Shown: positions 913 through 59,107 of the stretch, piece after piece
Numbering within the stretch: position 1 is the first letter of the stretch
Layout: each line of letters begins with the position of its first letter
From: an uncultured Mycoplasmatota bacterium
GTDB lineage: Bacteria; Bacillota_I; Bacilli_A; RF39; UBA660
Reading direction: 5' to 3'
Assembly (NCBI GenBank): GCA_900553835.1
Contig: USFF01000002.1
Coordinates: 6,756 to 70,755, forward strand
Length of the DNA stretch: 64,000 nucleotides
The notes under the pieces: model-generated
Seen by the model: only the letters and a program-made list of their open reading frames with translations
Databases searched by the model: none
Told to the model about the DNA's origin: nothing
Position numbers and translations under genes: made by a program

Positions 913-1461
913 ATGTTAAAAAATAATCAAATACTAGACGAAAAAGAAAAAATACTACATGAAAAATCAAAAGAAGTAGTTTTTCCACTAGATAAAGAAG
1001 ATAAAAAACTTATTAATGAAGCATATGAATATTTAAGAAATAGTCAAGATGAAGAACTAGCTGAGAAGTATAATTTAAGACCTGGAATGGGACTTGCTTT
1101 TGTACAACTTGGTAAGTTAAAAAGAATATTTATAATTTCATATAAAGAAGAAGATGGCAGTTTTACTGAGTATACTGTAATAAATCCTAAAGTAATTAGT
1201 TATTCAAATGAACTAGTTTATGTAGAAGAAGGTGAAGGCTGTTTAAGTGTTAATAGAGAAGTAGAAGGAATAGTACCAAGACATGCTAGAATAACAGTTG
1301 GATACTATAATGAAGAAGGAAAATATAAGGAAGAAAGAGTAAGAGAAGAAATGGCAGTAGCATTCCAGCATGAAATGGATCATTTAGATGGAATTATGTT
1401 TACAGATAGAATTGATAAAACAAATCCATTTAAAAACAAAGAAAAAATGAGAAGTATTTAA
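913..1461 (+). CDS. def: Peptide deformylase
   Basis: The three PDF motifs are present: GMGLAFVQLG, EGCLSV, HEMDHLDG. Confidence 0.93.
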   Translation: MLKNNQILDEKEKILHEKSKEVVFPLDKEDKKLINEAYEYLRNSQDEELAEKYNLRPGMGLAFVQLGKLKRIFIISYKEEDGSFTEYTVINPKVISYSNELVYVEEGEGCLSVNREVEGIVPRHARITVGYYNEEGKYKEERVREEMAVAFQHEMDHLDGIMFTDRIDKTNPFKNKEKMRSI

Positions 1462-1522
1462 TTCTTCTCTTTTCTTTTTAACAAAAATAATATATAATAT
1501 TTATAGAATAAAGGGTGATAAT

Positions 1523-1966
1523 ATGAATAATAAGTTTAGAATAATATTTTGGAGTTTTATATTTGTACTAGTTTTAGCCTCTGGTATATTTGGAATAAGT
1601 TATAATAAAATTATTTATGAAAACAAAAAAAATATGTTAGAAGAAATAGTAACGACATTTAATAGTAGTGAGACAGTATCTAGGTACAAAGAATATAATA
1701 TTGATATGAAAGCTACTTTAGAAAATAGAACAATAGTTGTTAAAGTAACTGGTACAAGTGAATATACTTATAATTTTAAATTTAAAAACACTTATCTAGA
1801 ACTTACTACTACTTTAGAAGATATTTATAAAGAAAGCATAGTTAAAGAAGTATTAAACTCTATTTATTTATATAACAAAAATGATAGTAAAGTAGATTTA
1901 AATAATAAAGAAGTTACAACAACTAGTAAGCAAAACACTATTACTTATAAAATATCATTAAAATAA
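1523..1966 (+). CDS. Hypothetical protein with N-terminal TM/signal anchor
   Basis: Hydrophobic N-terminus FRIIFWSFIFVLVLASGIFGI. No recognisable family. Confidence 0.55.
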   Translation: MNNKFRIIFWSFIFVLVLASGIFGISYNKIIYENKKNMLEEIVTTFNSSETVSRYKEYNIDMKATLENRTIVVKVTGTSEYTYNFKFKNTYLELTTTLEDIYKESIVKEVLNSIYLYNKNDSKVDLNNKEVTTTSKQNTITYKISLK

Positions 1967-1968
1967 AA

Positions 1969-1990
1969 AATAACACGCTAGGTGTTATTT
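1969..1990. terminator. Bidirectional hairpin between convergent genes
   Basis: AATAACAC-GCTAG-GTGTTATT flanked by A/T runs. It overlaps the stop of the minus-strand gene. Confidence 0.6.
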
Positions 1991-2590
1991 TAATTTTAAA
2001 GTGCTTGTTTCATTTTCTTCTTGAATTCTTTTAATTGCTCTTTTAAGTTCATAATCGTACATAAAAAGTGTTCTTGAAGTAGTCTTATGTTCACTTAGCA
2101 ATTTTTTTCTTTTATCAGGCACTAAATTTAAGGCATTATCTACATCAATCTTCTTAATCTTGTAATTATTTTTTTCAGCAATAGCATTTAATAATTGAAT
2201 AGATAAACCATTTCTTTTCATTTCGTATGATAAATAATTACTATGTTTAAAAATAATTTCTTTTAATAAACCACATTTTGCAAATACTCCAAGTTTCACT
2301 TTAAAATCATCAAGCTCAGCTAAATATATTCTACCATTTCTAGATAAAAATAAATCTACTTCTTCATCTTCGTAACCAAATACCTTTAAAAGTTTAATAA
2401 CATACCCTAAAGTACTATAAACTTCACCAGTATTTACAGATGAGTTAGCAAAATAAAATCTAGTAATTCTATTAATAGCTAATCTATCAAGTCCAAACTC
2501 CTCTTTAATTTTAACACACTCATTGGTGATTTCTTCTGCCCTTTCCCTTGTAATAGTGCTTCTTGCCCATGTACCATTATTTTGCATCAT
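1985..2590 (-). CDS. Hypothetical protein (helical repeat-like), adjacent to the tmRNA 3' flank
   Basis: 201-aa ORF with an SD (GGGGGTAATTGAT-ATG). No family recognised by eye. Confidence 0.55.
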   Translation of the reverse strand: MMQNNGTWARSTITRERAEEITNECVKIKEEFGLDRLAINRITRFYFANSSVNTGEVYSTLGYVIKLLKVFGYEDEEVDLFLSRNGRIYLAELDDFKVKLGVFAKCGLLKEIIFKHSNYLSYEMKRNGLSIQLLNAIAEKNNYKIKKIDVDNALNLVPDKRKKLLSEHKTTSRTLFMYDYELKRAIKRIQEENETSTLKLK

Positions 2591-2723
2591 ATCAATTACC
2601 CCCTTAAGTAATTAAAATTATACCATATTAAATACAAAATGTCAACTATTTGTAGTTTAATAAATACATTTTAATTATCATGTTAAAAGTAAAAGAATTA
2701 CTACATGGTTTTTATATATAATT

Positions 2724-2816
2724 TTAAACGATTATCTTACCTTTTCTTTCCATTCTTTTTCTTCGTAAAAACAGTATTTTCTCTACAATTCCTTGAAACC
2801 AATATATTATTTTCAT
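2724..2816 (-). CDS. Candidate 30-aa small ORF (MKIIYWFQGIVEKILFLRRKRMERKGKIIV)
   Basis: GGAGG lies 7 nt upstream of the ATG at 2816. Below the ORF-track size cutoff, with a basic C-terminal tail. There is no other support. Confidence 0.25.
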   Translation of the reverse strand: MKIIYWFQGIVEKILFLRRKRMERKGKIIV

Positions 2817-2845
2817 TTTAGAACCTCCACAAAAATCTTATATTT

Positions 2846-2871
2846 AATAAAAAGTCCTATTTTTAGGACTT
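2846..2871 (-). terminator. Intrinsic terminator after tmRNA
   Basis: Minus strand reads AAGTCCT-AAAAAT-AGGACTT followed by TTTTTATT. Confidence 0.7.
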
Positions 2872-2882
2872 ATAATCATTAT

Positions 2883-3237
2883 TGGTGGAGCTGACGAAGA
2901 GCGACTTCGTGTCCAAAGTATCAACCATACAGACGTGTACAAGTTTAGTTGGTTTATTATTTCAAAAAATATTATGGAGAGCCAACGTTCCTATATTTTT
3001 CTAAGTTTAGTAATAGTTCATTATATAACCTAAACAATTACATAGTATAGTTCACTTTTATAAGTCCAGACATTACCCTCGTGAACAAAGAATAAGCTGA
3101 ACCACTTACTTTTCCTAATTAGGCAAAAGCAGGTGCAAAATGATCAATATCGTTTCCGATTATTTTTTGTTGCGTTTATAGTACGCCTACTACTTGCATC
3201 CATACGTACAACTACTCTGTCGAATCAAAACAGCCCC
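2883..3237 (-). ncRNA. ssrA: tmRNA (SsrA)
   Basis: Minus strand starts GGGGCTGTTTTGATTCGACAG and ends GGACACGAAGTCGCTCTTCGTCAGCTCCACCA, a tRNA-like acceptor/T-arm plus CCA. The internal tag frame ends ...GGA AAC GAT ATT GAT CAT TTT GCA CCT GCT TTT GCC TAA (GNDIDHFAPAFA*). The segment is GC-rich in an AT-rich background. Confidence 0.92.
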
Positions 3238-3251
3238 ATAGTACGTTTATA

Positions 3252-3280
3252 ATTTTAGCAAAAAGTTCTAATTATGTCAA
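3252..3280 (-). promoter_or_regulatory. Promoter for ssrA
   Basis: Minus strand has TTGACA (3280-3275), 17-nt spacer, TAAAAT (3257-3252), about 14 nt before the mature 5' end. Confidence 0.6.
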
Positions 3281-3306
3281 TAATTTTGAACCAAATTTTG
3301 TACTAT

Positions 3307-4512
3307 TTATTTATTAATTTTAATAGAATTTACTACTTGTTTATAGTTTTCTTCAAATAAATCTTCATCACTTTCATCATATATTAACTCAGTTAAATAA
3401 GCTTTATTTTCATCTAGAAGCAAATAAATATAAGTTTTTTTATCAGTATTTTCTATATAACTACCCATTATTAAAGAGCCCTTAATACTATCTATTTCAC
3501 ATTCTTCTACTAAACTTACATTAACTGCTTCTTTAAGAAATTCTAAATATGTACTTTTAAAATCACTTTTTAACTCATCACTTGATAAATCAACTGTAAA
3601 TTCTTCTAACATAACTGCTTCAAGTCCGGTTAAATAACTTTCAGAAAACCCATCAAAATATCCTAGTTCATCATCACTGTTTTTCTTGTCAAACTCAAAA
3701 TAGTCTGGTAAAGATATAGAAATATTATTATATTTATAAGTTTTATAATTAACTTCATCACTATAAGATAATAGGATAAGTATAAATGCTACAAAAATAG
3801 CTAATAAAGTAATTAATCCATTTCTAACTTTATTTTTAATACGTGTTTTTTTAGCATTACTTTCTTTTCTTTCTTCATTATTTATACTTTCTTTGTCAAA
3901 GTAAGTTTTACTTCCTTTAGTTAGAACTATTCCTTCTTTAATCATTTCTTTTAAAAACATATAGTTATTATTAACTTTAAAAGTACTAAGCACTACAGCG
4001 TTTGGAACAGCATTCTTCTTATCAAGAGCATTATAATCAGTGTATATTTTTTCTAATCTTTTTAATTTGTCTTCATATGAAATTTCATCTTTATCACTTA
4101 CATTATAAGCTTCTTTATTTATATTAGAAATTACCCCACCTATACCTAAGAATGTAAATATAACTGATACAACATAATCACCTATAATTGCTTTTACAAA
4201 GCCATTATTTTGATAAAGATTAACTACACTATTTAAATTATGTCCTTCCCTTAAAACAAGCCATGAAGGTATAATTACAAAAGTTAAAAGTGATACAACC
4301 ACAAAAGAAATAATGCCTATTATAAGTGAAGTCTTTTTAGTTACTTTTGCTTTTGATTTTTTATAAAATAAATATGCTCCAAAAGCTATCAATGTCGCAA
4401 GTAAACTCATAATGTATCCTGCATAAATATAAACTAAAGCCCATGGAAGTCCAAATATAAGTCCTCCAATAAAGGCAGCAATTACTCCTTTTAAATAATT
4501 ATTTTTTTCCAT
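3307..4512 (-). CDS. Multi-pass membrane protein with C-terminal soluble domain (hypothetical)
   Basis: Several hydrophobic segments (GVIAAFIGGLIFGLPWALVYIYAGYIMSLLATLIAFGAYLF and others). No family recognised. Confidence 0.6.
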   Translation of the reverse strand: MEKNNYLKGVIAAFIGGLIFGLPWALVYIYAGYIMSLLATLIAFGAYLFYKKSKAKVTKKTSLIIGIISFVVVSLLTFVIIPSWLVLREGHNLNSVVNLYQNNGFVKAIIGDYVVSVIFTFLGIGGVISNINKEAYNVSDKDEISYEDKLKRLEKIYTDYNALDKKNAVPNAVVLSTFKVNNNYMFLKEMIKEGIVLTKGSKTYFDKESINNEERKESNAKKTRIKNKVRNGLITLLAIFVAFILILLSYSDEVNYKTYKYNNISISLPDYFEFDKKNSDDELGYFDGFSESYLTGLEAVMLEEFTVDLSSDELKSDFKSTYLEFLKEAVNVSLVEECEIDSIKGSLIMGSYIENTDKKTYIYLLLDENKAYLTELIYDESDEDLFEENYKQVVNSIKINK

Positions 4513-4513
4513 A

Positions 4514-4957
4514 CTACCTACCTCTTCCTTTTACTTCTTCTTCACTATAACTCTTATAAAGATTATCTAGCATCTTAGAAAAATATTCTCTTTCATGATA
4601 TTTATTTTTAAATTCGTTTTCAGTTATAACTATTTTAGCTAAAAATTCTTTATACTCTTTATCTTTTAAAAACTCTTTATATTTGTTAAATATACAAGAC
4701 TTTAATCTTTCAATTTCTCCTAAACAAGCTTTAATACCTGCTTCAGAGTCATCTTCACTAGTTAAAAAGTTATATATCTTTTTATAACAAGTTTTTAATT
4801 TTTTATTAATTATTTTTAAAGCATACTTATTTTTAATCTCTTCACTAACTAAAGTAACTTTACCTTTCTTTGACTTAACTAGTAACCCACTAGTGCTGGT
4901 CATTCTTTTAAATTTTCCTTTATCTTTATTTTTCTTTAACTTATACATAAAACCCAC
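4514..4957 (-). CDS. Hypothetical basic/coiled-coil protein
   Basis: 147-aa lysine-rich ORF tightly packed between trmD and the membrane protein. Confidence 0.5.
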   Translation of the reverse strand: MGFMYKLKKNKDKGKFKRMTSTSGLLVKSKKGKVTLVSEEIKNKYALKIINKKLKTCYKKIYNFLTSEDDSEAGIKACLGEIERLKSCIFNKYKEFLKDKEYKEFLAKIVITENEFKNKYHEREYFSKMLDNLYKSYSEEEVKGRGR

Positions 4958-5620
4958 CTACTTCATTAAATCTGGTCTTTTTTCTTTTGTAACCCTTATT
5001 CTTTCATTATATCTATATTCTTCTATTTTCTTGTGGTCTCCACTTAAAAGGACTTCTGGAACAGCCATTCCTCTATATATACTTGGTTTAGTATACACTG
5101 GATAATCTAGCAAATTATCTGTAAAACTTTCACTTTTTAAGCTTTCTTCATTAATAACACCTGGCACGAGTCTTGTAACTGAGTCAACTACGGCCATTGC
5201 AGCAATCTCTCCTCCAGTTAAAACATAGTCACCAATACTTATTTCTTCATCAATTAAAGTTTTAATTCTCTCATCAAAACCTTCATAATGTCCACATAAA
5301 ATTATCAAATGTTTATGTTTACTTAAAAGATAAGCTTTCTCTTCATTATAAACTTTACCACTAGGAGTTAACATTATAGTAAGAGAGTCAGTATCCTTAA
5401 CACTTTCTATGGCCTTAAAAACTGGATCACACATAAGAACCATTCCCGATCCCCCGCCGTAAGGAGTATCATCAACTTGATTATTATTTAAAGTACTAAA
5501 GTCTCTTATATTAATAAGATTAATTTCTACTTTTCCATCTTTAATAGCTCGCGCGATTATGCTCTCTTCTATAATAGGTTTAAACATATCCGGAAAAAGG
5601 GTTAATATATCTATTTTCAT
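4958..5620 (-). CDS. trmD: tRNA (guanine37-N1)-methyltransferase
   Basis: MKIDILTLFPDMF..., GGGSGMVL, LICGHYEGFDER-like motif (ILCGHYEGFDERI). Classic rimM-trmD pairing. Confidence 0.93.
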   Translation of the reverse strand: MKIDILTLFPDMFKPIIEESIIARAIKDGKVEINLINIRDFSTLNNNQVDDTPYGGGSGMVLMCDPVFKAIESVKDTDSLTIMLTPSGKVYNEEKAYLLSKHKHLIILCGHYEGFDERIKTLIDEEISIGDYVLTGGEIAAMAVVDSVTRLVPGVINEESLKSESFTDNLLDYPVYTKPSIYRGMAVPEVLLSGDHKKIEEYRYNERIRVTKEKRPDLMK

Positions 5621-6090
5621 AATAAACCATCAACTCCTTTAAATATTATCTTTTTATTTTTTATATCTACATTTTCAATAAATTCTTTATTAAATGGAAT
5701 GTATTTACCACTTACATAAAATAACTTATAACCATTATTTACTATAATGTCATTTATCTTTCCAATAAATTTATCATTATAGTATCCATCAAGTCCAATA
5801 TAATCACTAAATAATAAATCATCTTTTTTTAAATCAAGTTCTTCTTTATCCATATAAACTTTCTTACCTTTGAATTTTAACACATCATTAATATAATCAT
5901 ACTCTTTGAATGTTACCATATCAAAAATCTTATGATGCCTATAAGAATTAATAGTAACTTTTTCGTTATCTATGTAAAAGTGTTTACCCTTAACAAAAGC
6001 CTTATCTTTATATTCAAAATTACTTATTATCTTAACTTCGCCTTTTAAAGCATGAGTATTAACTAGTTTACCTATATACACGTATTCCAT
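5617..6090 (-). CDS. rimM: 16S rRNA processing protein RimM
   Basis: N-terminal IGKLVNTHALKGEVKI motif. It overlaps trmD by 4 nt. Confidence 0.85.
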   Translation of the reverse strand: MEYVYIGKLVNTHALKGEVKIISNFEYKDKAFVKGKHFYIDNEKVTINSYRHHKIFDMVTFKEYDYINDVLKFKGKKVYMDKEELDLKKDDLLFSDYIGLDGYYNDKFIGKINDIIVNNGYKLFYVSGKYIPFNKEFIENVDIKNKKIIFKGVDGLL

Positions 6091-6094
6091 AATA

Positions 6095-6811
6095 TCACCT
6101 AAACTTATACATTATTATACCACCAGTTACAGCAACATTCAAACTTTCACACTTATTATTCATAGGAATATTTATACTATCATCACACATTTCTTTTACA
6201 AAAGAACTTACCCCTTTGCCTTCGCTACCAAGCACCAGTGCATAGCTATTAATGCTAGCTTCATCTAAATTAATATTGCCAAACATATCTGCATAATAAA
6301 TTTTTATACCTTTACTTTTAATTAAATTAATTGCGTCTTTTAAATCAAGAGTAACTATATTCATATTAAATATAGTTCCTTCAGTACTTCTAATTAATTT
6401 ATCGTTATATACGTTTACACTTTTAGGACTTAAAACTACAGTAGAAACATTAAATGCAAGCGCACTTCTTATAATAGTACCAACATTTCCTGGATCACCT
6501 ACATCATCAAGTAAAACTATTTTTTCTCCTTTAATTTCACTACCAAAATTCAGTTTAACTACTCCCATTATACTTGGAGTACTCTTAAGTAAACTAATTT
6601 TTTCTAAGCATCTTTTACTAACTAAAGTAGTTTTTACGTTGAATTTAGTATTTTCTTCACATGTAATAACTTCTAAAAGATTATTACTTTTATAAGCTTC
6701 TTCTACTAAATGTTCTCCCTCCACTATAAATTTATTTTCTTCTTTAATAAATTTACTATCTCTTAACTTCTTAAAATAAACTATTTTTTCATTATTTACA
6801 CTCTCTATCAT
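6095..6811 (-). CDS. TrmH/SpoU-family RNA 2'-O-methyltransferase
   Basis: SpoU motifs: DDVGDPGNVGTIIRSA, LVLGSEGKGVS, ESLNVAVTGGIIMY. Confidence 0.85.
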   Translation of the reverse strand: MIESVNNEKIVYFKKLRDSKFIKEENKFIVEGEHLVEEAYKSNNLLEVITCEENTKFNVKTTLVSKRCLEKISLLKSTPSIMGVVKLNFGSEIKGEKIVLLDDVGDPGNVGTIIRSALAFNVSTVVLSPKSVNVYNDKLIRSTEGTIFNMNIVTLDLKDAINLIKSKGIKIYYADMFGNINLDEASINSYALVLGSEGKGVSSFVKEMCDDSINIPMNNKCESLNVAVTGGIIMYKFR

Positions 6812-6813
6812 TA

Positions 6814-7452
6814 TTACTCCTCATTTAAATGTTTTTTATTTTTTATATAATCAGGTTTATAATATTTTACTAATTTCCAAAATTCTTTACTATGATCAAA
6901 ATGAATAAAATGTACAAGTTCATGAATAATTACATAATCAATATCATCTATATCATGTTTAATTAGTTCTTTATTTAAAGTAATTAAACCTTTACTTTTA
7001 TTGCAGTAGCCCCATTTCCTAGTCATCTTTCTTATATTCACTTTTGGATAATCTATAGGTATATTAATTTTTTCATATACATGTTTAACTCTTTTCTCTA
7101 AAACTTCTTTACTCATTTTATCTAAAAACTTATCTAAATCACTTTCTTTATTAACATAAATATAATCTTCACATATCTTTGGAAACTTAACCGCATTAGT
7201 TATAACCGCGTTATATTCCTTACCTAGGTAATAAAACTTATGAGATTTTTCTACTCTTTTTTTCATTTTTAAATACATCTTAGTAATATAATCCATATTA
7301 CTATTAATTAACTCTTTAATATATCCATCTGTAACAAAATAATTAGTAGTAACATAAATATTTAAATCCGGTTTAACTCTTATATAGGTATTCCTATTAC
7401 TTTTCCTAACTATAATAACATCAACTAGTTCTCCATCAATTAATACTTTCAT
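6814..7452 (-). CDS. YgjP-like (DUF45/M48-type) metal-dependent hydrolase
   Basis: HExxH in IIHELVHFIHFDHSKEFW, and the typical length. Confidence 0.75.
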   Translation of the reverse strand: MKVLIDGELVDVIIVRKSNRNTYIRVKPDLNIYVTTNYFVTDGYIKELINSNMDYITKMYLKMKKRVEKSHKFYYLGKEYNAVITNAVKFPKICEDYIYVNKESDLDKFLDKMSKEVLEKRVKHVYEKINIPIDYPKVNIRKMTRKWGYCNKSKGLITLNKELIKHDIDDIDYVIIHELVHFIHFDHSKEFWKLVKYYKPDYIKNKKHLNEE

Positions 7453-7509
7453 GACTTAAGTATAACATATAAACAAATAAAAATCTATTACAAATAGTAA
7501 CAGATTTCT

Positions 7510-7929
7510 CTAATCAAGAGTATAAGTTTTTTCATTTCCTAATCGTTTGACAAAGTACATTAAGTCATCATGAGTAAGTTCTCCTTCAAACTTAAGTCTA
7601 TTACTTCTTAGATAATTTAGATGCCTAATAACTTTATCATAAGTTTTATAGTCTTTAAAGTATTCATAAATAGTATCTAAAAGTTCTTTTAAAAGATAAA
7701 AGTTAGGTTTATGCATGCTACTAAAAAACTTTGAAAAATAAGGACCAGAACTACAATAAGAATATATATTAAGTATTCCATCTAAATTAATATATTTAAA
7801 GTTAAGTTCTTTTTTATCTACATATACATATTTACCGGTACTTACATTATAAAATTTATAAAATGCAGTATATTCTTTCCTCTTACTTAAAGAATAACCT
7901 CTTTCAATTAAAACAATAATATCTTTCAT
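7510..7929 (-). CDS. Hypothetical protein
   Basis: 139-aa ORF downstream of the XRE regulator. No family recognised. Confidence 0.5.
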   Translation of the reverse strand: MKDIIVLIERGYSLSKRKEYTAFYKFYNVSTGKYVYVDKKELNFKYINLDGILNIYSYCSSGPYFSKFFSSMHKPNFYLLKELLDTIYEYFKDYKTYDKVIRHLNYLRSNRLKFEGELTHDDLMYFVKRLGNEKTYTLD

Positions 7930-7964
7930 TTTTAACCACCCTTAAATAAAGTATACCATATTTG

Positions 7965-7992
7965 TTAAAAATAAAAAAGCACTTCCGTGCTT
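7965..7992 (-). terminator. Intrinsic terminator after the XRE gene
   Basis: Minus strand reads AAGCAC-GGAA-GTGCTT followed by TTTTATTTTT. Confidence 0.65.
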
Positions 7993-8302
7993 ATTTAACG
8001 GCTTCTTTTTCCTTTTTTTCTTCTTTAACTTTAGGAAGTGGTACTACACCAAGAGTATAACCAATTGGTTCTAAAAGTCTAATAAGAGTATTTATTTGAG
8101 GACTATTTAAATTATTCTCAATTTTAGCAACAGTTTCTCTGATAATACCAGCACGTTCACCCACTACTCTTTGACTTAAATGCTGACTTTTTCTAGCAAC
8201 AACAACTTGACGTATTACTTCCCTTTCAAGCTCGTTTAATTTTTCATCCCTTTTTATTTCTTCTTCGCTTTTAACGATATTTTCTTTCTTTGGTCTTCCC
8301 AT
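7991..8302 (-). CDS. XRE-family helix-turn-helix transcriptional regulator
   Basis: HTH_3-like LSQRVVGERAGIIRETVAKIENNLNSPQINTLIRLL. I place the start at MGRPKK (8302) because a consensus promoter and SD occupy 8303-8386 of the longer track ORF. Confidence 0.8.
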   Translation of the reverse strand: MGRPKKENIVKSEEEIKRDEKLNELEREVIRQVVVARKSQHLSQRVVGERAGIIRETVAKIENNLNSPQINTLIRLLEPIGYTLGVVPLPKVKEEKKEKEAVK

Positions 8303-8321
8303 TTTTCCTTCACCGATTACT

Positions 8322-8349
8322 ATTGTACCAAAAAATTGTACAATGTCAA
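8322..8349 (-). promoter_or_regulatory. Consensus sigma-A promoter of the XRE gene with embedded palindrome
   Basis: Minus strand has TTGACA (8349-8344), 16-nt spacer, TACAAT (8327-8322) with TGG extension. The spacer contains TTGTACAA and a GTACAAT direct repeat. Confidence 0.65.
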
Positions 8350-8453
8350 CCTTTTTTATTAAATTTTTATACTTTATTTTATACAAAAGACTGCATAAAG
8401 AGGAATTGACTTAATATTATTAACAAAAACCTATAATTTCAAGGGTTTACAAA

Positions 8454-8514
8454 GAAATTTCACAAAAATCGGACGACTTTTTCTTGAAATTTCACAAAAA
8501 TCGGACGACTTTTT
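8454..8514. repeat. Perfect 29-bp direct repeat x2 (GAAATTTCACAAAAATCGGACGACTTTTT), 32-bp period
   Basis: Copies at 8454-8482 and 8486-8514 are identical, and intergenic between iscU and the XRE gene. Confidence 0.9.
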
Positions 8515-8539
8515 GAAAAAATTAATTAAATTTTGAAGT

Positions 8540-8962
8540 TTATTTATCTTCGTGAATGTCATTTTTAGGTTTTTCTAAACCGTCTATTTTTATACCTTTC
8601 TTTTCAGCATAATCCCAAAGTGCAGCACGAATTGCTTCTTCTGCGAGTAAACTGCAATGAACTTTAACTGGAGGTAAACCATCTAACGCTTCCATTACTG
8701 ATTTATTAGTAATTTTTAAAGCTTCATTTACACTTTTACCCTTAATTAACTCTGTAGCCATAGAACTAGTAGCTATAGCAGCACCGCAACCAAAAGTTTT
8801 AAACTTAACATCTTTAATAATTCCATTATCATCTATGTCAAGATATATTCTCATAATATCCCCACATCTTGCATTACCAACTGTTCCAACACCACTTGCA
8901 TTCTCTATTTCACCAACATTTCTTGGATTAGTAAAATGATCCATTACTTTTTCTGAATACAT
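8540..8962 (-). CDS. iscU: Fe-S cluster scaffold protein IscU/NifU-like
   Basis: MYSEKVMDHFTNPRNVG, GNARCGD, FKTFGCGAAIA and a conserved C-terminal Cys. The start at 8962 sits directly after the iscS stop. Confidence 0.9.
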   Translation of the reverse strand: MYSEKVMDHFTNPRNVGEIENASGVGTVGNARCGDIMRIYLDIDDNGIIKDVKFKTFGCGAAIATSSMATELIKGKSVNEALKITNKSVMEALDGLPPVKVHCSLLAEEAIRAALWDYAEKKGIKIDGLEKPKNDIHEDK

Positions 8963-41643: not shown

Positions 41644-42075
41644 TTATTTAATTATAAATTCTTGAGAAGTATAAAACTCTTCTTTAGCATTCTTTAACCT
41701 AAAACTTTTTACTATTCTATATTTTCCTTTAGAAAGTTTTCCATAGTAACTAGTCCATTTTAAGTTTTCTTCTTTTTCTTCTCCTTTTTTTAAATTATAA
41801 GCCACCATAATAAAATGCATTTCTTCTTTAGGTTTTACTTTATACCACTTATCATTTTCTTCTTTCTCTAGATGATATGAAAGCCCATATGTTAAATCAT
41901 AGTTACTAATATTTATTAGTTTAAAAGTAATTCCTTCATTAGTAGTTTTTTCCTCGTTTATTTCCATTTTTAAATATTCGTTATTCATATTAAGGGTACT
42001 TTCTTCTAATAAATTTGTTTTATTACAGCCTGTTAAAGTTAATGCTAGTAATATAGTTAGAAATATTTTTTTCAT
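41644..42075 (-). CDS. Lipoprotein (hypothetical)
   Basis: Lipobox LALTLTGC after MKKIFLTILL. The start at 42075 is preferred (SD AAAGGAGA) over the longer track ORF. Confidence 0.65.
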   Translation of the reverse strand: MKKIFLTILLALTLTGCNKTNLLEESTLNMNNEYLKMEINEEKTTNEGITFKLINISNYDLTYGLSYHLEKEENDKWYKVKPKEEMHFIMVAYNLKKGEEKEENLKWTSYYGKLSKGKYRIVKSFRLKNAKEEFYTSQEFIIK

Positions 42076-42187
42076 AAGTCTCCTTTCTATTTTCATATTA
42101 ACATTAAATTCATTTTTAGTCAAATGTTATCCTAAAATCTTTACAAATAATTATAATTTAGTATAATATTTAGAAAAGGAGAAAATT

Positions 42188-42508
42188 ATGACTGAACTAA
42201 AGAAAATAAATGAGTTAATAAACGCTGTTAAGGATAATACATATAATTTACCTAAAGAACTAGAATTATATATATTAAATTTAATTTATAAAGAACTACA
42301 AAATATAGAGTGTTCACCTAATAGTACTTGTGAATACTGTGAAAATATAAGTAGTACTGGTAATAACTTCTATAGTATTTATTGCAGTTATCTAGATAGA
42401 AGTAAACAAAAAAAGATTTATGATTTTATAAGTGACAACTTTATACCGGGTTGTCCATTTATTACTCTCAGAGAAGAAGTTAATTCCTTAATTAGAAAGA
42501 TTAGTTAA
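42188..42508 (+). CDS. Hypothetical Cys-containing protein
   Basis: 106-aa ORF with SD AAAGGAGAAAATT-ATG. No family recognised. Confidence 0.5.
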   Translation: MTELKKINELINAVKDNTYNLPKELELYILNLIYKELQNIECSPNSTCEYCENISSTGNNFYSIYCSYLDRSKQKKIYDFISDNFIPGCPFITLREEVNSLIRKIS

Positions 42509-43818: not shown

Positions 43819-43821
43819 TAA

Positions 43822-43850
43822 AAAGACTTATTTGTATATAAGTCTATTTT
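43822..43850. terminator. Bidirectional terminator between femAB-like gene and the HA operon
   Basis: AGACTTAT-TTGTAT-ATAAGTCT with flanking A/T runs. Confidence 0.6.
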
Positions 43851-44362
43851 TTCTTTTTAAGTTTTTTTGTGTTTCTATGTATGTTTAGAACAAAGCCTTC
43901 TTTAGTCTTTTTATCTAAAAGTACTAAGTCATTATTATTACAAAAAGTTTCTATGTATATTAGTACTTCTTCATTTATATAGTTATATATAAACATATCT
44001 TTATTAATAGTTATAATTTCTAGAGTAGATTTAATTATTCTATTGTATAAATTATTTGCTACTAAGTAGTTTATTTCTTTTTGATATTTTCTTTTTTCTA
44101 AGTATCTTTCTATTATGTTTAATTTACTACTAACTTCTTTTTTAGGTAGTTTTACTTTTTCTATATAAAGTTTTATTTGATTATTATTTATGTTGTTATA
44201 TAGGATATACCCATTTAAATATAATAATAAATTTAAATAATTAAGTAATTTATTATTTATTAAGTAATAAGTATTATCTCCTTTTGTATACTCAATTTTT
44301 TTATCAGTTATTAATTTGTTATAAAAGTATTTTAATACATCATTATTCATATTACACCTCAT
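43844..44362 (-). CDS. Hypothetical protein, last gene of the HA-repeat operon
   Basis: 172-aa Asn/Tyr/Leu-rich ORF with a lysine tail, 5 nt downstream of the preceding gene. Confidence 0.5.
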   Translation of the reverse strand: MRCNMNNDVLKYFYNKLITDKKIEYTKGDNTYYLINNKLLNYLNLLLYLNGYILYNNINNNQIKLYIEKVKLPKKEVSSKLNIIERYLEKRKYQKEINYLVANNLYNRIIKSTLEIITINKDMFIYNYINEEVLIYIETFCNNNDLVLLDKKTKEGFVLNIHRNTKKLKKKK

Positions 44363-44367
44363 TAATA

Positions 44368-45528
44368 TTATATTTTTTTAGTTAGTTTATTTTCTCTTAT
44401 ATTCCATATCATTCCTATATTATTTAGTAGTTCTATTCTTTCAGTACTAATAGAACTTCTTAAACCCCTATAGGATGCTCTTTGAGAGTTTATCCATTGT
44501 CCTAATTTTATAATTTCTCCATTTACTATAGTTTCATATGTAGCAGGTACTTTTAAGTCACCATTTTCCTCATAATACTTTTTAGCTACTTTATAATATT
44601 TCATCCATCTTATATCTTTTAAGTTTTTTACATTGTCATCTTTTATTATGCTAGAAAATATATCCATTAGTTCTTTTCTTTTACCTGTTAATTCGTTATT
44701 CCTATATAAACTTAATTGTCTTTTATACCACTGGTTTAAAGATATTAGTTTCCCATTTACTTCTACTAAATAAGTATTTGGAATAACACTAGTACCTTTA
44801 TCACCATAATATTTTACCATACTTTTAAATGTTATAATCCAGTTCTTTTCACTTTGAAAAAATTTTACATCTTCCCATTGCATACCTATTTCATTTAAAA
44901 GTTTTATTCTTTCATTTGAAAGCTCTCCTAAATTATAACATCTTCTTTGATAAGTTATCCAGTTTCCTAGTGCTACACTATTGCCTTCTATATTTACTTC
45001 ATAAGTATTAGCTATTAGTAAGTCACCATTTTCAGTATAATAGTCTTTTGCTAAGTTATACATATATTCCCATGAAAATCTTGTTCTTAATTTCCATACC
45101 ATACCTATCTCGTCAAGTAGTTCTTTTCTTTTAGCGCTTAGTTTACCACTGTGGTAATTAACCCTTTGAGAAATTATCCAGTTACCTAGATTTATTTCTT
45201 TATTATCTTTTATATAGGAATAAGTCATAGGTACTTTTAAGTTACCTTTTTCTTTGTAATAATTAATTGCTTCTTTATACATTTTAAGCCATGGAATATC
45301 AAGTACTTCTTCATCATAACAATTCCATACCATACCTATCTCATCAAGTAGTTCTTTTCTATATTTTGAAAGTTTACCTAATTTGTTATATCTTCTTTGT
45401 CCTATTATCCATACACCTAAGTTAACATCTCCTACTTTATAATTTTTCTTAATTAATAAGTTACCATTTTCTTCATAATATTTTTTAGCAAGATTATATT
45501 TTTCTAACCATTTTTTATCATTATACAT
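44368..45528 (-). CDS. Protein made of ~5 tandem helicase-associated (HA) domain repeats
   Basis: Repeating about 65-75-aa unit W..(Y/F)..A..YY.E.G.L.vP..Y......LG.WI..QR..Y..GKLS..R..LL.EIGM.W. Confidence 0.8.
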   Translation of the reverse strand: MYNDKKWLEKYNLAKKYYEENGNLLIKKNYKVGDVNLGVWIIGQRRYNKLGKLSKYRKELLDEIGMVWNCYDEEVLDIPWLKMYKEAINYYKEKGNLKVPMTYSYIKDNKEINLGNWIISQRVNYHSGKLSAKRKELLDEIGMVWKLRTRFSWEYMYNLAKDYYTENGDLLIANTYEVNIEGNSVALGNWITYQRRCYNLGELSNERIKLLNEIGMQWEDVKFFQSEKNWIITFKSMVKYYGDKGTSVIPNTYLVEVNGKLISLNQWYKRQLSLYRNNELTGKRKELMDIFSSIIKDDNVKNLKDIRWMKYYKVAKKYYEENGDLKVPATYETIVNGEIIKLGQWINSQRASYRGLRSSISTERIELLNNIGMIWNIRENKLTKKI

Positions 45529-45547
45529 ATTTATTCCCCCTTAGTAA

Positions 45548-47398
45548 TTATTTATTTAATACTTTAGTTTTATTAGAAGTTATTCCTATTTCTTCCAATA
45601 GTTTAGCTTTTTCTATAGAAAGTTTTCCATTTTTATATAAATTTTTTTGAGAACTTAACCACTCTTTTAAGTTGATTATCTTTCCATTAACTTCTATAGT
45701 GTAGTTTTTAGGAAAAAATAAGTCTCCATTTTTATCATAATATTCTTTTATGAATTTATATTTTTCTAACCAATTTGCCATTCTTTCACTATTAAATTCC
45801 CAAATCATTCCTATTTCATTTAGAAGTTTTATTTGTTTTTCACTAATCTTAGCTCTTCTTCCTTTATATGATGATCTTTGAGAATTTATCCAGTCTCCTA
45901 GTTTAATTATCTCTCCATTTACTTCTACTTCATATGTATTAGGAATTCTTAAATTACCATGCATCATAAAGTACTTTTTAGCTAGTTCATAGTTTTTCAT
46001 CCATTTTAGTCTAGATAAGTTTTCTGCTCTTTTGTCATTTACTTTATTAGAAAATGCTTCTATTAACTTTTTTCTTTCACTACTTAATTTATTATTTCTA
46101 CAAAGATATAATTGTTTTGTATACCATTTATTTAAGTTTATACTTTTGTTTTCTATTAAAACCTCGTAGTCAGATGAAATATTAGTGGTTTCATTTTCTT
46201 CATAGTATTTTACTACATTTTTAAATAGAATAAGCCAGTTTTTATCATCTGTAGTTTGTTTTACATCTTCCCATTTCATTCCTATTTCATTTAGAAGTTC
46301 TATTCTTTCACTTAAAAGAGTTTTCTTTTTATAACTTCTTCTTTGGTTTACTATCCAGTTTCCTAGTGATATATCTGTTCCTTCTACATTTACTATCAAA
46401 TTTCTAGGTACTAGTAAATCACCATGTTCTTTATAGTAATCTTTTGCTAATTTATAGACATATTCCCATGTAAACCAGTTTTTCTTTTCCCATTTCATAC
46501 CTATTTTATCAAGAAGCTTTATTTTATCAGCTGATATCTTATTATTACCATAATTCTGTCTCTGTGAGATTACCCACTGTCCTAGATTGATTTTTATTCC
46601 ATCTTTTTCATAAACATAAGTATAAGGTACTTTTAAATCACCATGTTCCTTATAGTAGTTAACTGCTACATTATATATTTCAAACCAATTTTTATCATTT
46701 TCTGTTTTTATCTTATTGTTTTCATTTAACATTATAAGTTCATTAACCAGTTTTTCTTTTTCAGCTGATAATTCTTTTAATTTTAACATACTTTTTTGAT
46801 TTTTATACCATGATTTTAAAAGTATTTCTTCATGACTAACTGTAACTAAATAGTCGTTAGGTATTATTAAGTTACCATGTTCTTTATAAAACTCTAAAAC
46901 CTCTTTATATAAAGAAAACCATTTTTTATCTCTGTTATCTTTTCTATTTCGTTTTCTTTGTTCTGCTTTCCACTGTACTCCTATGTTTTCAAGTAACTTT
47001 ATTTTTTCTATAGAAAGTTTTCCTTCATTATAAAATTTTATTTGATTTCTAAGCCATGCTCCTAATAGTACATTTTTATCATTTATATTTATTTTGTATG
47101 TACTAGAGAAAAGTTTATTGTTTTCTAAATAGTAATCTTTTGCTAAATTATACATATATTCCCAAGAATAAGTATTATTTATTTTCCAAACCATTCCTAT
47201 TTCATTTAAAAGGTCTATTCTTTCTTTACTTAATGTGCCTTTTAAGTACCCCTGTCTTTGAGCCATTACCCATGTACCTAGATTAATTATTATTCCATCC
47301 TTTAAAGAACTATATCTAAATGGTACTTTTAAATTACCATGTTCTAAATAGTATTCTTTTGCTAAGTTATATTTCTTTAGCCATTTTCCATCTTTCAT
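45548..47398 (-). CDS. Protein made of ~8 tandem HA domain repeats
   Basis: Same repeat unit. Blocks are colinear with parts of both neighbouring paralogues. Confidence 0.8.
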   Translation of the reverse strand: MKDGKWLKKYNLAKEYYLEHGNLKVPFRYSSLKDGIIINLGTWVMAQRQGYLKGTLSKERIDLLNEIGMVWKINNTYSWEYMYNLAKDYYLENNKLFSSTYKININDKNVLLGAWLRNQIKFYNEGKLSIEKIKLLENIGVQWKAEQRKRNRKDNRDKKWFSLYKEVLEFYKEHGNLIIPNDYLVTVSHEEILLKSWYKNQKSMLKLKELSAEKEKLVNELIMLNENNKIKTENDKNWFEIYNVAVNYYKEHGDLKVPYTYVYEKDGIKINLGQWVISQRQNYGNNKISADKIKLLDKIGMKWEKKNWFTWEYVYKLAKDYYKEHGDLLVPRNLIVNVEGTDISLGNWIVNQRRSYKKKTLLSERIELLNEIGMKWEDVKQTTDDKNWLILFKNVVKYYEENETTNISSDYEVLIENKSINLNKWYTKQLYLCRNNKLSSERKKLIEAFSNKVNDKRAENLSRLKWMKNYELAKKYFMMHGNLRIPNTYEVEVNGEIIKLGDWINSQRSSYKGRRAKISEKQIKLLNEIGMIWEFNSERMANWLEKYKFIKEYYDKNGDLFFPKNYTIEVNGKIINLKEWLSSQKNLYKNGKLSIEKAKLLEEIGITSNKTKVLNK

Positions 47399-47413
47399 AG
47401 GTTGCCTCCTTAA

Positions 47414-49015
47414 TTATTTTTTTAATGTTTTACTATTCCAAACCATACCTATTTCATTAAGTAAATTTATTTTTTCCTCATTTAGTTTTCCAAGTTCATA
47501 TAGCATCCTTTGTCTTCTTAACCAATCTCTTAAACTAAATAATTTATCATTAACTACATAACTTGAAGGAATATCTAAATTACCATATTCTTCATAGTAT
47601 TTTTTAACAAGTTCATAATTATCTAACCATTCTGAATATCTTATACTTCCAAATTCCCAAATCATTCCTAACTCATTAAGAAGTTTTATCATTTCTTCAT
47701 TTAGTTTTCCTTTTTTATAAATAGTTCTCTGCCTATCTATCCACTTTCCTAGTTTTTTAACTTTACCATTTACTATAACTTCATATTCAGAAGGTATTTT
47801 TATGTTTCCAGAATGATTATAATATTCTTTTGCTAAGTTATAAAAAAACATCCATTTTTTATCATTTTCTGTTTTTATTTTATTATCCTCGTCTAATGAA
47901 AATAGACCATTTATTAGTTTTTCTTTTTCTGGCGATAATTCTTTTTGTTTTAACATACTTTTTTGTTTTTTATACCATGACTTTAAAAGTATTTCTTCAT
48001 GATCAACTGTAACTAAATAGTTATTAGGTATTACTAAATTACCATGTTCTTTATAATAATTTATAACTGCTTTATATAAAAGTAACCATTTTTTATTTTT
48101 CTCGTTTTCTCTAATTTGTTTTCTTTCTTCTCTAGTCCACTTTAAACCAATTGTTTCAAGTAGTTTTATTTTTTCTTCAGTTAGTTTTCCCTTATTATAA
48201 AAATTTTTTTGTTTATTAAGCCATACTCCTAAAAGAATATTATTTCCATCTATATTTACTTTATAATTGGTAGTAAAAAGTTTATTGTTTTTTAAATAGT
48301 AATCTTTTGCTAGATTAAACATATATTCCCAAGAAAATTTTGCTTTCCATACCATGCCTATTTTATCAAGTAATTCTTTTCTTTTAGCACTTAGTTTACC
48401 ATTATTATAGATAATTCTTTGAGAAACTATCCAGTTACCTAAGTTTATTACTTCATCATCTTTTATGTAAGAATAAACCATAGGTACTCTTAAGTTGCCT
48501 TTTTTTTTGTAATAATTAACTGCTTCCTCATACATATATTCCCAAGAATAAGCATTATTTATTTTCCAAATCATTCCTATTTCATTAAGTAGTTCTTTTC
48601 TTTTAGCACTTAGTTTACCATTCTTATAGATAACTCTTTGAGTAGCTATCCAGCTACCTAGTTTTATTTTCTCACCATCCTTTATGTAAGAATAAACTGT
48701 AGGTACTTTCAAATTACCTTTTTCTTTGTAATAATTAGTTGCTTCTTTATACATATATTCCCAAGAGTCATTTCTTATTTTCCAAATCATTCCTATTTCA
48801 TTAAGTAGCTCTTTTCTATATTTGGGAAGTTTACCTAAACCATTATTTTCTCTTTGCCACCTTATCCATGTACCAAGATTAATTTTTGTTCCATGCTTCT
48901 CACATGAATAAGTAACAGGTATTTTTAAGTTACCATTTTCTTCATAATATTTTTTTGCTAAACTATATTTTTCGAACCAGTCTTTATCATATTCTGACCA
49001 TTTTTTGCCTTGCAT
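47414..49015 (-). CDS. Protein made of ~7 tandem HA domain repeats
   Basis: Same repeat unit. Own promoter TTGCAT-17-TGTTACAAT upstream (about 49066-49038). Confidence 0.8.
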   Translation of the reverse strand: MQGKKWSEYDKDWFEKYSLAKKYYEENGNLKIPVTYSCEKHGTKINLGTWIRWQRENNGLGKLPKYRKELLNEIGMIWKIRNDSWEYMYKEATNYYKEKGNLKVPTVYSYIKDGEKIKLGSWIATQRVIYKNGKLSAKRKELLNEIGMIWKINNAYSWEYMYEEAVNYYKKKGNLRVPMVYSYIKDDEVINLGNWIVSQRIIYNNGKLSAKRKELLDKIGMVWKAKFSWEYMFNLAKDYYLKNNKLFTTNYKVNIDGNNILLGVWLNKQKNFYNKGKLTEEKIKLLETIGLKWTREERKQIRENEKNKKWLLLYKAVINYYKEHGNLVIPNNYLVTVDHEEILLKSWYKKQKSMLKQKELSPEKEKLINGLFSLDEDNKIKTENDKKWMFFYNLAKEYYNHSGNIKIPSEYEVIVNGKVKKLGKWIDRQRTIYKKGKLNEEMIKLLNELGMIWEFGSIRYSEWLDNYELVKKYYEEYGNLDIPSSYVVNDKLFSLRDWLRRQRMLYELGKLNEEKINLLNEIGMVWNSKTLKK

Positions 49016-49071
49016 AAACTTTCCCCCTTAAAAGTATAAAATATTGTAACATATTTTATACTAAAATGCAA

Positions 49072-49094
49072 GAAAAAAAGAAGATTATACTTCT
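49072..49094 (-). terminator. Terminator of the infC-rpmI-rplT operon
   Basis: Minus strand reads AGAAG-TATAAT-CTTCT followed by a T7 run. It overlaps the rplT stop. Confidence 0.6.
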
Positions 49095-49608
49095 AGTTTA
49101 AAGCAGCTATTAATTCTGCTTTTTTCATAGTTGTATAACCTTCTATTCCTTTTTCTTTTGCAAGTGTTTTTAATTCAGCAACTGTTTTACCATTTAAATC
49201 ATTTGTTTCTTTTTCTTCTTTTACTTCAGGCTTAGCACTGTTTACTACTGGGTTTTCTAAACCCTTTTTAGCAACTTCAACTAATTTAGCAAATTCATTC
49301 ATATCTTGAATTGCAAGTTCACTAAGCATTTTTCTATTTATTTCAACTCCTGCTTTGTTAAGACCATCTATAAATTTTGAATAACTTATGTTGTTCATTC
49401 TACAAGCAGCATTAATTCTTGTAATCCATAGTTTTCTGAAGTTTCCTTTATTTTTCTTTCTATCATTGAAACTATATCTTCCACTATGCATTAATTGTTC
49501 ATGAGCTGATTTAAATAATCTGTGTTTACTTCCGAAATATCCTTTAGCTCTGTTTAAAACTTTCTTTCTTCTAGCTCTTGCTACTGTTCCGCCTTTAACT
49601 CTTGTCAT
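49093..49608 (-). CDS. rplT: 50S ribosomal protein L20 with ~50-aa C-terminal extension carrying a Rho_N/SAP-like helix-extended-helix motif
   Basis: A canonical L20 core ([18 protein letters not shown]...) ends near residue 118. The extension ends [32 protein letters not shown]. Confidence 0.9.
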
Positions 49609-49613
49609 TTATA

Positions 49614-49808
49614 TTACCCCCTTAAAGCTTTCTTGTATCTGTTTGTGTCAGCTCCACTTAAAACAGATCCCTTTCTATGATCTCTATTGAAACTTGTTGG
49701 TTTTTTACCAGTTTTATGGTTTGCTCCTGGTTTACCTATTTTAGTACTTCCACCAGGTCTTACAGTTACTTTTTTTGCTATACCTTTATGTGTTTTTTGT
49801 TTTGGCAT
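49614..49808 (-). CDS. rpmI: 50S ribosomal protein L35
   Basis: MPKQKTHKGIAKKV...; 64 aa, between infC and rplT. Confidence 0.92.
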   Translation of the reverse strand: MPKQKTHKGIAKKVTVRPGGSTKIGKPGANHKTGKKPTSFNRDHRKGSVLSGADTNRYKKALRG

Positions 49809-49826
49809 CTTTATCTCCTTCTTTCT

Positions 49827-50348
49827 TTATTTTTTAGGTGCTATAGTTAAACTAATTGTTCTACCCTCTAGTCTTGGCTCTTCTAAAATTGTAGCCACAT
49901 CTTCTAGAGCGTTTGCAAATTTGACAATTACATCACGTCCAAGTTCTGGATGTGCAATTTGTCTACCTTTAAATCTAACCGATACTTTGACTTTATGTCC
50001 TTTTATAATATATGCACGGGCGTTTTTGAGTTTAGTCTCAAAGTCGTGAGTGTCAATAGTTACGGATAACCTATATTCTTTGAGCTCTAAATTTTGTTCT
50101 CTCTGTTTTTTCTTGGCGTCTTTTTCTCTTTTCATCTTTTCATACTTAAACTTGTTATAGTCTATAACTTTGCAAACTGGAATTCCATCTTTGCTCATTA
50201 ATACTAAATCAAGTCCAGCATAATTAGCTAGAGTAAGCGCATCCTCTCTTTTCTTGATACCTAATTTTTCTCCATTAGGTCCAATTACCATAACTTCTTC
50301 AAATTTAATTTGTTCATTAATTAGAACGTTATCATTTTGTTTAGCTAT
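49827..50348 (-). CDS. infC: Translation initiation factor IF-3 (non-AUG start likely)
   Basis: INEQIKFEEVMVIGPNGEKLG... is the typical IF-3 N-terminus. GGAGGTG lies 6 nt before ATA at 50348-50346. The N-terminal 15 aa of the track ORF look non-coding. Confidence 0.88.
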   Translation of the reverse strand: MAKQNDNVLINEQIKFEEVMVIGPNGEKLGIKKREDALTLANYAGLDLVLMSKDGIPVCKVIDYNKFKYEKMKREKDAKKKQREQNLELKEYRLSVTIDTHDFETKLKNARAYIIKGHKVKVSVRFKGRQIAHPELGRDVIVKFANALEDVATILEEPRLEGRTISLTIAPKK

Positions 50349-50393
50349 TGTAAACACCTCCAAATATAAATAGAAAAGTGAATGCAGTTGCAT

Positions 50394-52315: not shown

Positions 52316-52545
52316 GTTTTTTCCTCCTTTAATATAAAAAATCTATAATCTAAGGACTTATTATATAAGCGGTGCCACCTTAGTTTATAGATTTTATCTA
52401 TACTCTTTAATTCCTTAACGCAGAAATACGATTATTTTTATATTTTGTGTCTTCATAAATTATTTATTATTAGTTTACACCAAACACTAACTCTCTTTAA
52501 ATAAATTAATTTATTACTCTTCAAAACAAATAATATATTTAAATT
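52316..52545 (-). promoter_or_regulatory. T-box leader (Asp specifier GAC)
   Basis: Minus strand has AGAGAG/GTTAGTG stem I elements, specifier ATGAAGACAC (GAC at 52451-52449), T-box AAGGTGGCACCGC (52380-52368) and a terminator ending in T6 before the SD AAAGGAGG. Confidence 0.8.
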
Positions 52546-58997: not shown

Positions 58998-59107
58998 CTT
59001 CCACTCCGAGATTTGGAGCCTCTCACTCCGAGTTTTGGAGCCTTCCATTCCGAGTTTTGATGCCTCTCACTTCGAATTTTGGAGACTTTCACTTCGAGTT
59101 TTTTTAG
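58998..59107. repeat. Five tandem 22-bp repeats (consensus CTCTCACTCCGAGTTTTGGAGC), degenerating toward one end
   Basis: Units at 58998, 59020, 59042, 59064 and 59086. Odd and even units alternate CTTCCA/CTCTCA. Each unit has a CTCC..GGAG inverted pair. Confidence 0.9.

Follow-up and report, generated by a model that had tools for sequence, protein, structure and literature searches.

Tandem arrays of the helicase-associated (HA) domain (Pfam PF03457) are known from several types of protein, the closest described systems being superfamily 2 (SF2) helicases encoded by hundreds of actinobacterial and Pseudomonas plasmids and also by Ruminococcus albus. Published accounts further place HA arrays in the Streptomyces subtelomeric helicase TtrA and in telomeric TniQ proteins, which are target selectors, and HA domains in phospholipase D (PLD) nucleases homologous to END defence nucleases. 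Here we describe an operon of three HA-array genes (A, B, and C) and a fourth, partner gene in a 64,000-nucleotide stretch of DNA from an uncultured Mycoplasmatota bacterium (contig USFF01000002.1, positions 6,756 to 70,755; hereafter the window), which has a G+C content of about 26% and whose nearest named relative, as judged from ribosomal protein L20 (85% identity), is 'Clostridium sp. CAG:628'.

The window proteins resemble the SF2 helicases in carrying tandem PF03457 units, as in TtrA and the R. albus 7 proteins WP_013483605 and WP_013483606, and the R. albus arrays are of similar size (8–11 units) and are likewise encoded by adjacent paralogous genes. The SF2 proteins, however, have an N-terminal ResIII/DEAD/Helicase_C motor of about 400 amino acids (aa) that A, B, and C lack. 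Sigma-70, TniQ, and PLD nuclease proteins with HA units share the repeat module, presumably the part that recognises DNA, but tether it to a catalytic or RNA polymerase-binding module, whereas an effector of the window arrays would need to be recruited in trans. Stand-alone HA proteins from viruses and from metagenome-assembled genomes (MAGs) of gut Firmicutes are pure arrays like those in the window, although they lie in other genomic contexts and have no described function. A conserved operon of variable array size with an orphan partner is undescribed in the literature searched.

An operon of end-to-end HA arrays

The three HA genes lie on the minus strand in the order A (47414–49015; 533 aa, 7 HA units), B (45548–47398; 616 aa, 8 units), and C (44368–45528; 386 aa, 5 units), exactly where a first-pass annotation, made by a model from the letters and their open reading frames (ORFs), had placed them. 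That annotation had also matched the repeats to the HA domain, counted 7 + 8 + 5 repeats, and noted the lack of a helicase, and each of these points is borne out by profile searches. The Pfam HA model scores 328, 328.8, and 243.7 bits with A, B, and C respectively, against a curated cut-off of 28.4 bits (E = 6e-100, 3.3e-100, and 1.2e-73), in 7, 8, and 5 matched stretches, and a hidden Markov model (HMM) derived from the locus itself picks out the same 20 units. No Pfam family besides HA is present in A, B, or C, NCBIfam gives nothing meaningful, and neither database assigns a helicase family to them; ten other large ORFs in the window also gave no helicase domain when scanned, and a six-frame scan with the locus HMM located no further HA units in the window. 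The units begin at residues 4–11 of each protein and the longest stretch between them is 16 aa, and the three proteins are thus end-to-end arrays. We found a single solved HA structure, 2KTA (74 aa), annotated only as a 'putative helicase'; a profile of the 20 units matches it with E = 4.1e-8, and a single window protein with E = 0.005. All three proteins are basic, with isoelectric points (pI) of 9.4–9.5 and net charges of +18 to +33. Their N-termini (MQGKKWSEYDKDW, MKDGKWLKKYNL, and MYNDKKWLEKYN) are by inspection polar, with no signal peptide, lipobox, or hydrophobic segment, and the proteins are probably cytoplasmic.

Blocks of units are colinear between the genes, as the first-pass annotation had proposed for A4–5 with B2–3 and for B5–7 with C3–5. 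Unit A4 is 68% identical to B2 and A5 is 77% identical to B3; B5, B6, and B7 are 61%, 49%, and 62% identical to C3, C4, and C5; and further correspondences link A1 with C1 (68%) and A2/A3 with C2 (73%), against a mean identity of 42% over all pairs of units. The same blocks can be seen in the DNA, where an offset of 1396 nucleotides (nt) recurs between C and B, and Tandem Repeats Finder reports a period of 219 nt, or 73 aa, in gene A. A, B, and C are thus paralogues related by segmental duplication. Because the duplicated blocks are 60–85% identical at the DNA level, the duplications are old and not homogenised.

Signals at both ends of the gene set define its limits. Between rplT and gene A is a near-consensus promoter (49043–49071, minus strand), which the first-pass annotation had recognised, consisting of a −35 box TTGCAT (49071–49066), a 17-nt spacer, and an extended −10 box TGtTACAAT (49051–49043). 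The −35 box, the spacing, and the TGnTAyAAT motif are all kept in the window and in three further loci (four loci from three species). Further upstream, a hairpin (AGAAG-6 nt-CTTCT, 49079–49094, minus strand) overlaps the rplT stop codon and is followed by a T-run at 49078–49073; its stem and T-run are conserved in the three species and its loop is variable. This hairpin is weak (−3.8 kcal/mol, z −1.3), is probably a leaky terminator, and makes some read-through from infC-rpmI-rplT plausible. Within the operon the intergenic gaps are only 15–19 nt, and a strong Shine-Dalgarno sequence precedes every gene (AAGGGGG for A, 8 nt ahead of its ATG, AAGGAGG for B, and AAGGGGG for C). At the distal end an intrinsic terminator (AGACTTAT-6 nt-ATAAGTCT with a T-run, 43820–43845, minus strand) overlaps the stop codon of the partner gene and faces the convergent femAB; it folds with −8.0 kcal/mol (z −4.3), and none of 200 shuffled sequences folds equally well. 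The four genes form a genuine operon, maintained by selection and equipped with a promoter of its own.

The partner gene is the last of the operon. The first-pass annotation described a 172-aa protein rich in Asn and Tyr, which corresponds to the ORF from the upstream start (43844–44362, minus strand); the composition stands (16% Asn and 10% Tyr), and the start is most likely at 44350, giving a gene at 43844–44350 and a protein of 168 aa, since the ATG at that point stands behind a Shine-Dalgarno sequence (GAGGTG) and is the start chosen by gene callers on other contigs. The protein is rich in Asn, Lys, and Tyr, has a pI of 9.55, and has no match in Pfam, NCBIfam, PHROGs, or PADLOC. Homologues are found in the same position in a sister species (187 aa, 33% identity) and in CAG:628-like genomes, where a 118-aa protein matches with a profile E of 5e-18 that covers its C-terminal half; the 182-aa protein in the partner position of another lineage (L015) aligns weakly with the 168-aa partner. 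A third small protein, of 105 aa in the CAG:628-like genomes, matches a 99-aa protein of the sister species, and neither these nor the partner orthologues match any Pfam family at E ≤ 1. An exhaustive HMMER search of 1.84 billion proteins with a partner profile found only three representative clusters, of which one, a protein of 5144 aa that the profile matches in 16 stretches, was taken as a composition-driven match. An internal duplication of the partner was rejected when its two halves, compared by BLASTP, gave no significant similarity (E = 1.2).

A conserved locus with variable array content

The first-pass annotation had set the operon between a femAB-like gene and the infC operon and had proposed that synteny be checked in relatives. 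In the window Pfam assigns the neighbour on one side to the FemAB family, and rplT, rpmI, and infC are present on the other. Comparison with related contigs shows that the order infC-rpmI-rplT, HA gene(s), small protein(s), convergent femAB, a 101–106-aa ORF, enolase, and secG is constant in four lineages, and that in all four the HA operon lies directly after rplT on the same strand. No integrase, transposase, or other mobile-element gene and no other defence gene lies beside the syntenic loci in the four lineages. Identical proteins of the A/B/C locus, including protein B, are present on human-gut metagenome contigs. The operon is a conserved chromosomal locus in the CAG:628-related clade. 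A scan of a genome collection yielded a single distant relative, a protein of 511 aa with HA units only that an uncultured Erysipelotrichaceae MAG encodes in other surroundings.

In this fixed position the number of HA genes and units varies widely. The window has three HA genes (7 + 8 + 5 units) followed by the 168-aa partner, and a strain of the same species (L008) has four (6 + 7 + 8 + 5). In a sister species (L006 and L024) a first gene of 10 or 9 units, followed by a 47-aa HA fragment, is succeeded by genes of 5 + 5 units and then, after the 187-aa and 99-aa proteins, by a last HA gene of 4 units. L015 has three HA genes (2 + 6 + 6 units) ahead of its 182-aa protein, and the CAG:628-like genomes (L020–L022) have a single gene with 3 units, followed by the 118-aa and 105-aa proteins. 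The HA content thus ranges from 3 to 26 units over five loci in four lineages (3, 14, 20, 24, and 26). The homology of the small proteins across the loci indicates a constant core of one or more HA arrays and an orphan partner. The synteny, the variation in units, and the conservation of the partner protein are additions to the first-pass annotation.

The HA proteins diverge much faster than the products of the neighbouring housekeeping genes. Between species, enolase, initiation factor 3 (IF3), and L20 are 79–91% identical and FemAB 67–69%, compared with about 35–38% for the HA proteins and 33% for the partner where it can be aligned at all with confidence. HA units are mostly closer to other units in their own genome than to those of another species. 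Gene C is the best conserved, with a 384-aa orthologue in the sister species in which units 1, 2, 3, and 5 correspond in order. Changes in unit number can be followed within species: gene A has strain variants of 460 aa with exactly one unit fewer and a hybrid A2/A3 junction, strain L008 has an additional mosaic HA gene, and the first HA gene of the sister species is found as 10- and 9-unit variants. The ratio of non-synonymous to synonymous substitution rates (dN/dS) between the window and L008 is 0.31 for A, 0.18 for B, 0.14 for C, and 0.07 for the partner, which shows functional genes that purifying selection preserves on a short time scale; on these values and the intact frames in many strains we reject a set of pseudogenes or junk DNA. 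Over longer time spans the HA content turns over quickly.

Synonymous divergence (dS) between the same two strains is uneven along the locus (window positions 43844–50393), being 0.59 for IF3 and 0.52 for the 106-aa ORF and 0.03–0.10 for the HA genes and partner, which suggests that strains have recently exchanged the HA operon by recombination.

Several neighbouring features deserve mention. The 106-aa ORF (42188–42508, plus strand) precedes femAB, which is on that strand too; it encodes a Cys-containing protein (CEYC ... PGCP) that matches no Pfam family, and has a 101–106-aa counterpart in the corresponding position at every syntenic locus. Between it and enolase, the window's species has a lipoprotein with a Big_14 immunoglobulin-like domain (41644–42123, minus strand), which is absent at that position in L006, L015, and L020. 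The L20 gene (49093–49608, minus strand) encodes a 171-aa protein with a C-terminal Rho_N-like (PF07498) extension, a fusion present in all of the 120 best homologues, including that of 'Clostridium sp. CAG:628'. Elsewhere in the window are a T-box leader upstream of aspS (52349–52533, minus strand) and a transfer-messenger RNA gene (2883–3237, minus strand), both above the Rfam gathering thresholds, and 4.6 tandem copies of a 22-nt unit (consensus CACTCCGAGTTTTGGAGCCTCT, 58998–59102) with no Rfam match; this repeat is higher in G+C than its surroundings and is situated in a stretch that has no ORF of at least 150 aa.

Helicase-less arrays in other genomes

The first-pass annotation regarded helicase-less arrays of this size as uncharacterised and, by implication, unusual, and these two parts fare differently. 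Our literature searches found no functional study of PF03457 or of helicase-less arrays, and most text matches concern the unrelated HA2 domain of DEAH helicases. Their rarity, however, was overstated. Among the 120 best homologues, 33 are pure arrays, in which non-HA stretches never exceed 60 aa; these include 15 full-length orthologues of the query (616–623 aa, 96–99% identity) and several more that are this species' own A, B, or C or their orthologues. About half of the 120 have an N-terminal region the size of a helicase. Some pure arrays in MAGs of Bacilli and Clostridia already carry the NCBI name 'helicase associated domain-containing protein', and a 10-unit pure array of 709 aa is present in a Bacilli MAG. 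Helicase-less HA arrays are therefore not rare, and are frequent in gut Firmicutes metagenomes under generic names only.

Three contigs show what other contexts such arrays can occupy. An AT-rich gut contig (L025, 24.6% G+C) has five consecutive HA-only genes at 969–8845 with 11 + 5 + 9 + 5 + 3 = 33 units, whose starts are spaced exactly 74 residues apart in the 859-aa and 676-aa genes; the context is different from that of the window and the cluster includes no homologue of the 168-aa partner. On a contig from a spore-forming Firmicute (L018, 8001–12307), a sigma-70 factor with regions 1.2, 2, 3, and 4 carries 7 C-terminal HA units and is directly followed by HA-only genes of 233 and 274 aa, an arrangement that resembles the window operon. 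On a third (L011, 6163–11135), a 1044-aa, 13-unit HA protein is encoded divergently to a caspase-like Peptidase_C14 gene and near a phage-type integrase, the sole defence- or mobile-looking context met for an HA-only array. Foldseek comparison of the predicted array with viral models recovered SF2 helicases of giant viruses that carry HA arrays, together with two HA proteins that have no helicase, of 414 aa in the gut siphovirus Siphoviridae sp. ctNU74 and of 377 aa in a Hyperionvirus.

Two candidates were set aside. The single match in a phage collection (MT837289) has four C-terminal HA units in a 760-aa ORF and is probably not helicase-less, the scan having covered the part that follows the first ~500 residues. 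A 914-aa Faecalibacterium protein that seemed HA-only begins with about 400 aa of non-HA sequence, in which ResIII matches weakly, and is not a true stand-alone array.

Possible roles of the arrays

The unit has a recognisable predicted fold and a distinctive pattern of conservation. In an AlphaFold2 model of protein C, each unit is predicted to start with a long helix, which a beta-hairpin and then two shorter helices follow, in agreement with the mainly alpha-helical, three-helix HA domain of about 65 aa. The mean predicted local distance difference test score (pLDDT) is 82, and the predicted template modelling score (pTM) is only 0.33 despite the confident units; the alignment was shallow (19 rows) and the linkers are of low confidence. 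We read this combination as separately folded modules on short tethers, with a rigid solenoid of the TALE, PUF, or mTERF type as a possible alternative given so shallow an alignment. Over 65 units from the syntenic loci, W3, Y7, Y13, L37, W40, and Q44 are nearly invariant (88–98% of units). The positions of highest entropy, 39, 42, 43, 46, and 47, are on helix 2 and flank W40 and Q44-R45, and positions 24 and 34, which lie in the hairpin and immediately ahead of it, are also among the most variable. Of the conserved helix-2 residues, the Gln is invariant and the Arg/Lys mostly conserved, and both are polar residues of a surface type rather than of a core.

We propose, with a probability of roughly 0.4, that the HA arrays are cytoplasmic multivalent DNA-binding proteins that lack a motor and whose role, perhaps shared with the partner, is in organising the chromosome or in transcription. 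Each separately folded module, a helix and beta-hairpin with two further helices, would bind DNA, with contact made through helix 2, where an invariant W-x3-Q-(R/K) motif is set amid the most variable positions of the unit. With five to eight modules per protein on short linkers, binding could extend over long or multiple DNA sites and would involve no motor or nuclease activity, and the role in chromosome organisation or transcription would be played in a reduced, AT-rich genome. Unequal recombination, both between units and between genes, would lengthen, shorten, and reshuffle the arrays. The proposal is consistent with the partners to which HA units are fused elsewhere, as SF2 helicases, sigma-70, TniQ, TtrA, and PLD nucleases all act on DNA. 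One Bacteroides HA domain reportedly binds DNA, according to papers that cite Mills et al. 2013. There is also a functional analogy to Myb repeats, zinc-finger arrays, and transcription activator-like effector (TALE) repeats, which are likewise tandem small helical modules with a conserved core and a variable putative recognition helix, and in which unit number is likewise altered by recombination; however, no homology to them was detected, and the model (pTM 0.33) gives no confident rigid superhelix.

Several observations weigh against this proposal. First, DNA binding by A, B, and C, like the helix-2 surface and the cellular role, is inferred indirectly. Second, the L025 proteins have near-neutral pIs of 7.1–8.9, and the basicity of HA arrays is thus not general. 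Third, the model of the five-unit array has no Foldseek match in the PDB at E ≤ 0.001. Fourth, the model of the partner is unreliable (pLDDT 55); its Foldseek matches are weak (best E 0.0097, template modelling score about 0.27) and include the tandem winged-helix proteins Nse/MAGE, ScpB, and ESCRT-II as well as the LAGLIDADG enzyme I-DmoI, and a winged-helix resemblance is a hint only. Fifth, architectural proteins of the chromosome do not usually diverge so much faster than their housekeeping neighbours, and this pace would also be compatible with an arms race. Finally, the position right after infC-rpmI-rplT, behind a weak hairpin, fits a role with RNA or ribosomes equally well.

The arms race leads to an alternative that we consider unlikely: an immunity or counter-immunity module, in which the diversifying arrays would sense invading DNA or the proteins of phages or plasmids, or act as decoys for them (by competing with HA-bearing helicases or nucleases, for example), and the partner would be an effector or adaptor. 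HA identities of about 35–38%, with 33% or barely alignable sequence for the partner, against 86–90% for enolase and IF3 are what such a module might show, as is variation within species (3 versus 4 genes, 7 versus 6 units, 10 versus 9 units), and HA domains do occur in END-homologous PLD nucleases, on hundreds of plasmids, in phage and giant-virus proteins, and, in the 13-unit array, beside a caspase-like peptidase and an integrase. The first-pass annotation had itself raised defence, anti-defence, and decoy functions, and this suggestion is not supported by the searches: none of the four operon proteins matches a PADLOC-DB 2.0 family at E ≤ 0.01, C and the partner have no PHROGs match, and Pfam and NCBIfam reveal neither an enzymatic nor a toxic domain in these proteins. 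The operon moreover keeps its fixed housekeeping position throughout the four lineages, where its surroundings hold no integrase, transposase, or other defence gene, and selection within species is purifying rather than diversifying. Genomic context thus favours a chromosomal role over mobile defence.

That same context is the starting point for a second alternative, which strikes us as decidedly unlikely, namely that the arrays bind RNA or ribosomal particles in translation or ribosome biogenesis and are partly co-transcribed with infC-rpmI-rplT. The operon follows rplT on the same strand in all four lineages, read-through across the weak hairpin is plausible, A, B, and C are basic, and the L20 of this clade has its extra Rho_N-like domain; however, a conserved near-consensus promoter separates rplT from the first HA gene, all known HA fusion partners act on DNA, and the HA clusters of other genomes are not beside translation genes. 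In a third, the arrays would either hold proteins together as a scaffold that has nothing to do with nucleic acids, or be a repeat expansion, close to selectively neutral, that an AT-rich genome tolerates. This would account for the flexible predicted arrangement, the extreme range in unit number, and the absence of a structural analogue of the whole array in the PDB, but it is improbable given dN/dS values of 0.14–0.31 with intact frames in many strains, the conservation of the promoter, Shine-Dalgarno sequences, and partner, and surface-type rather than core residues at the conserved helix-2 positions.

The proposal of multivalent DNA binding also has a bolder form, which we put forward only as a long shot: the arrays may be rapidly retargetable modular DNA readers, in which each unit would read a short DNA element through the hypervariable residues that surround the invariant W-x3-Q-R of helix 2, units gained, lost, or shuffled (3 to 26 per locus) would rewrite the chromosomal or foreign targets, and the clade-specific partner would bring about silencing or protection. 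PF03457 is a large family in bacteria, plasmids, phages, and giant viruses, and the clade described here offers a natural experiment, with one site, one promoter, a varied number of units, a constant partner, and never a helicase, in which the helicase-free operon isolates what the HA module itself does. Sequence selectivity of the units would make the arrays a new class of modular DNA-binding repeat; even without it, the result would still give a role to common 'hypothetical' proteins of abundant reduced-genome gut Bacilli.

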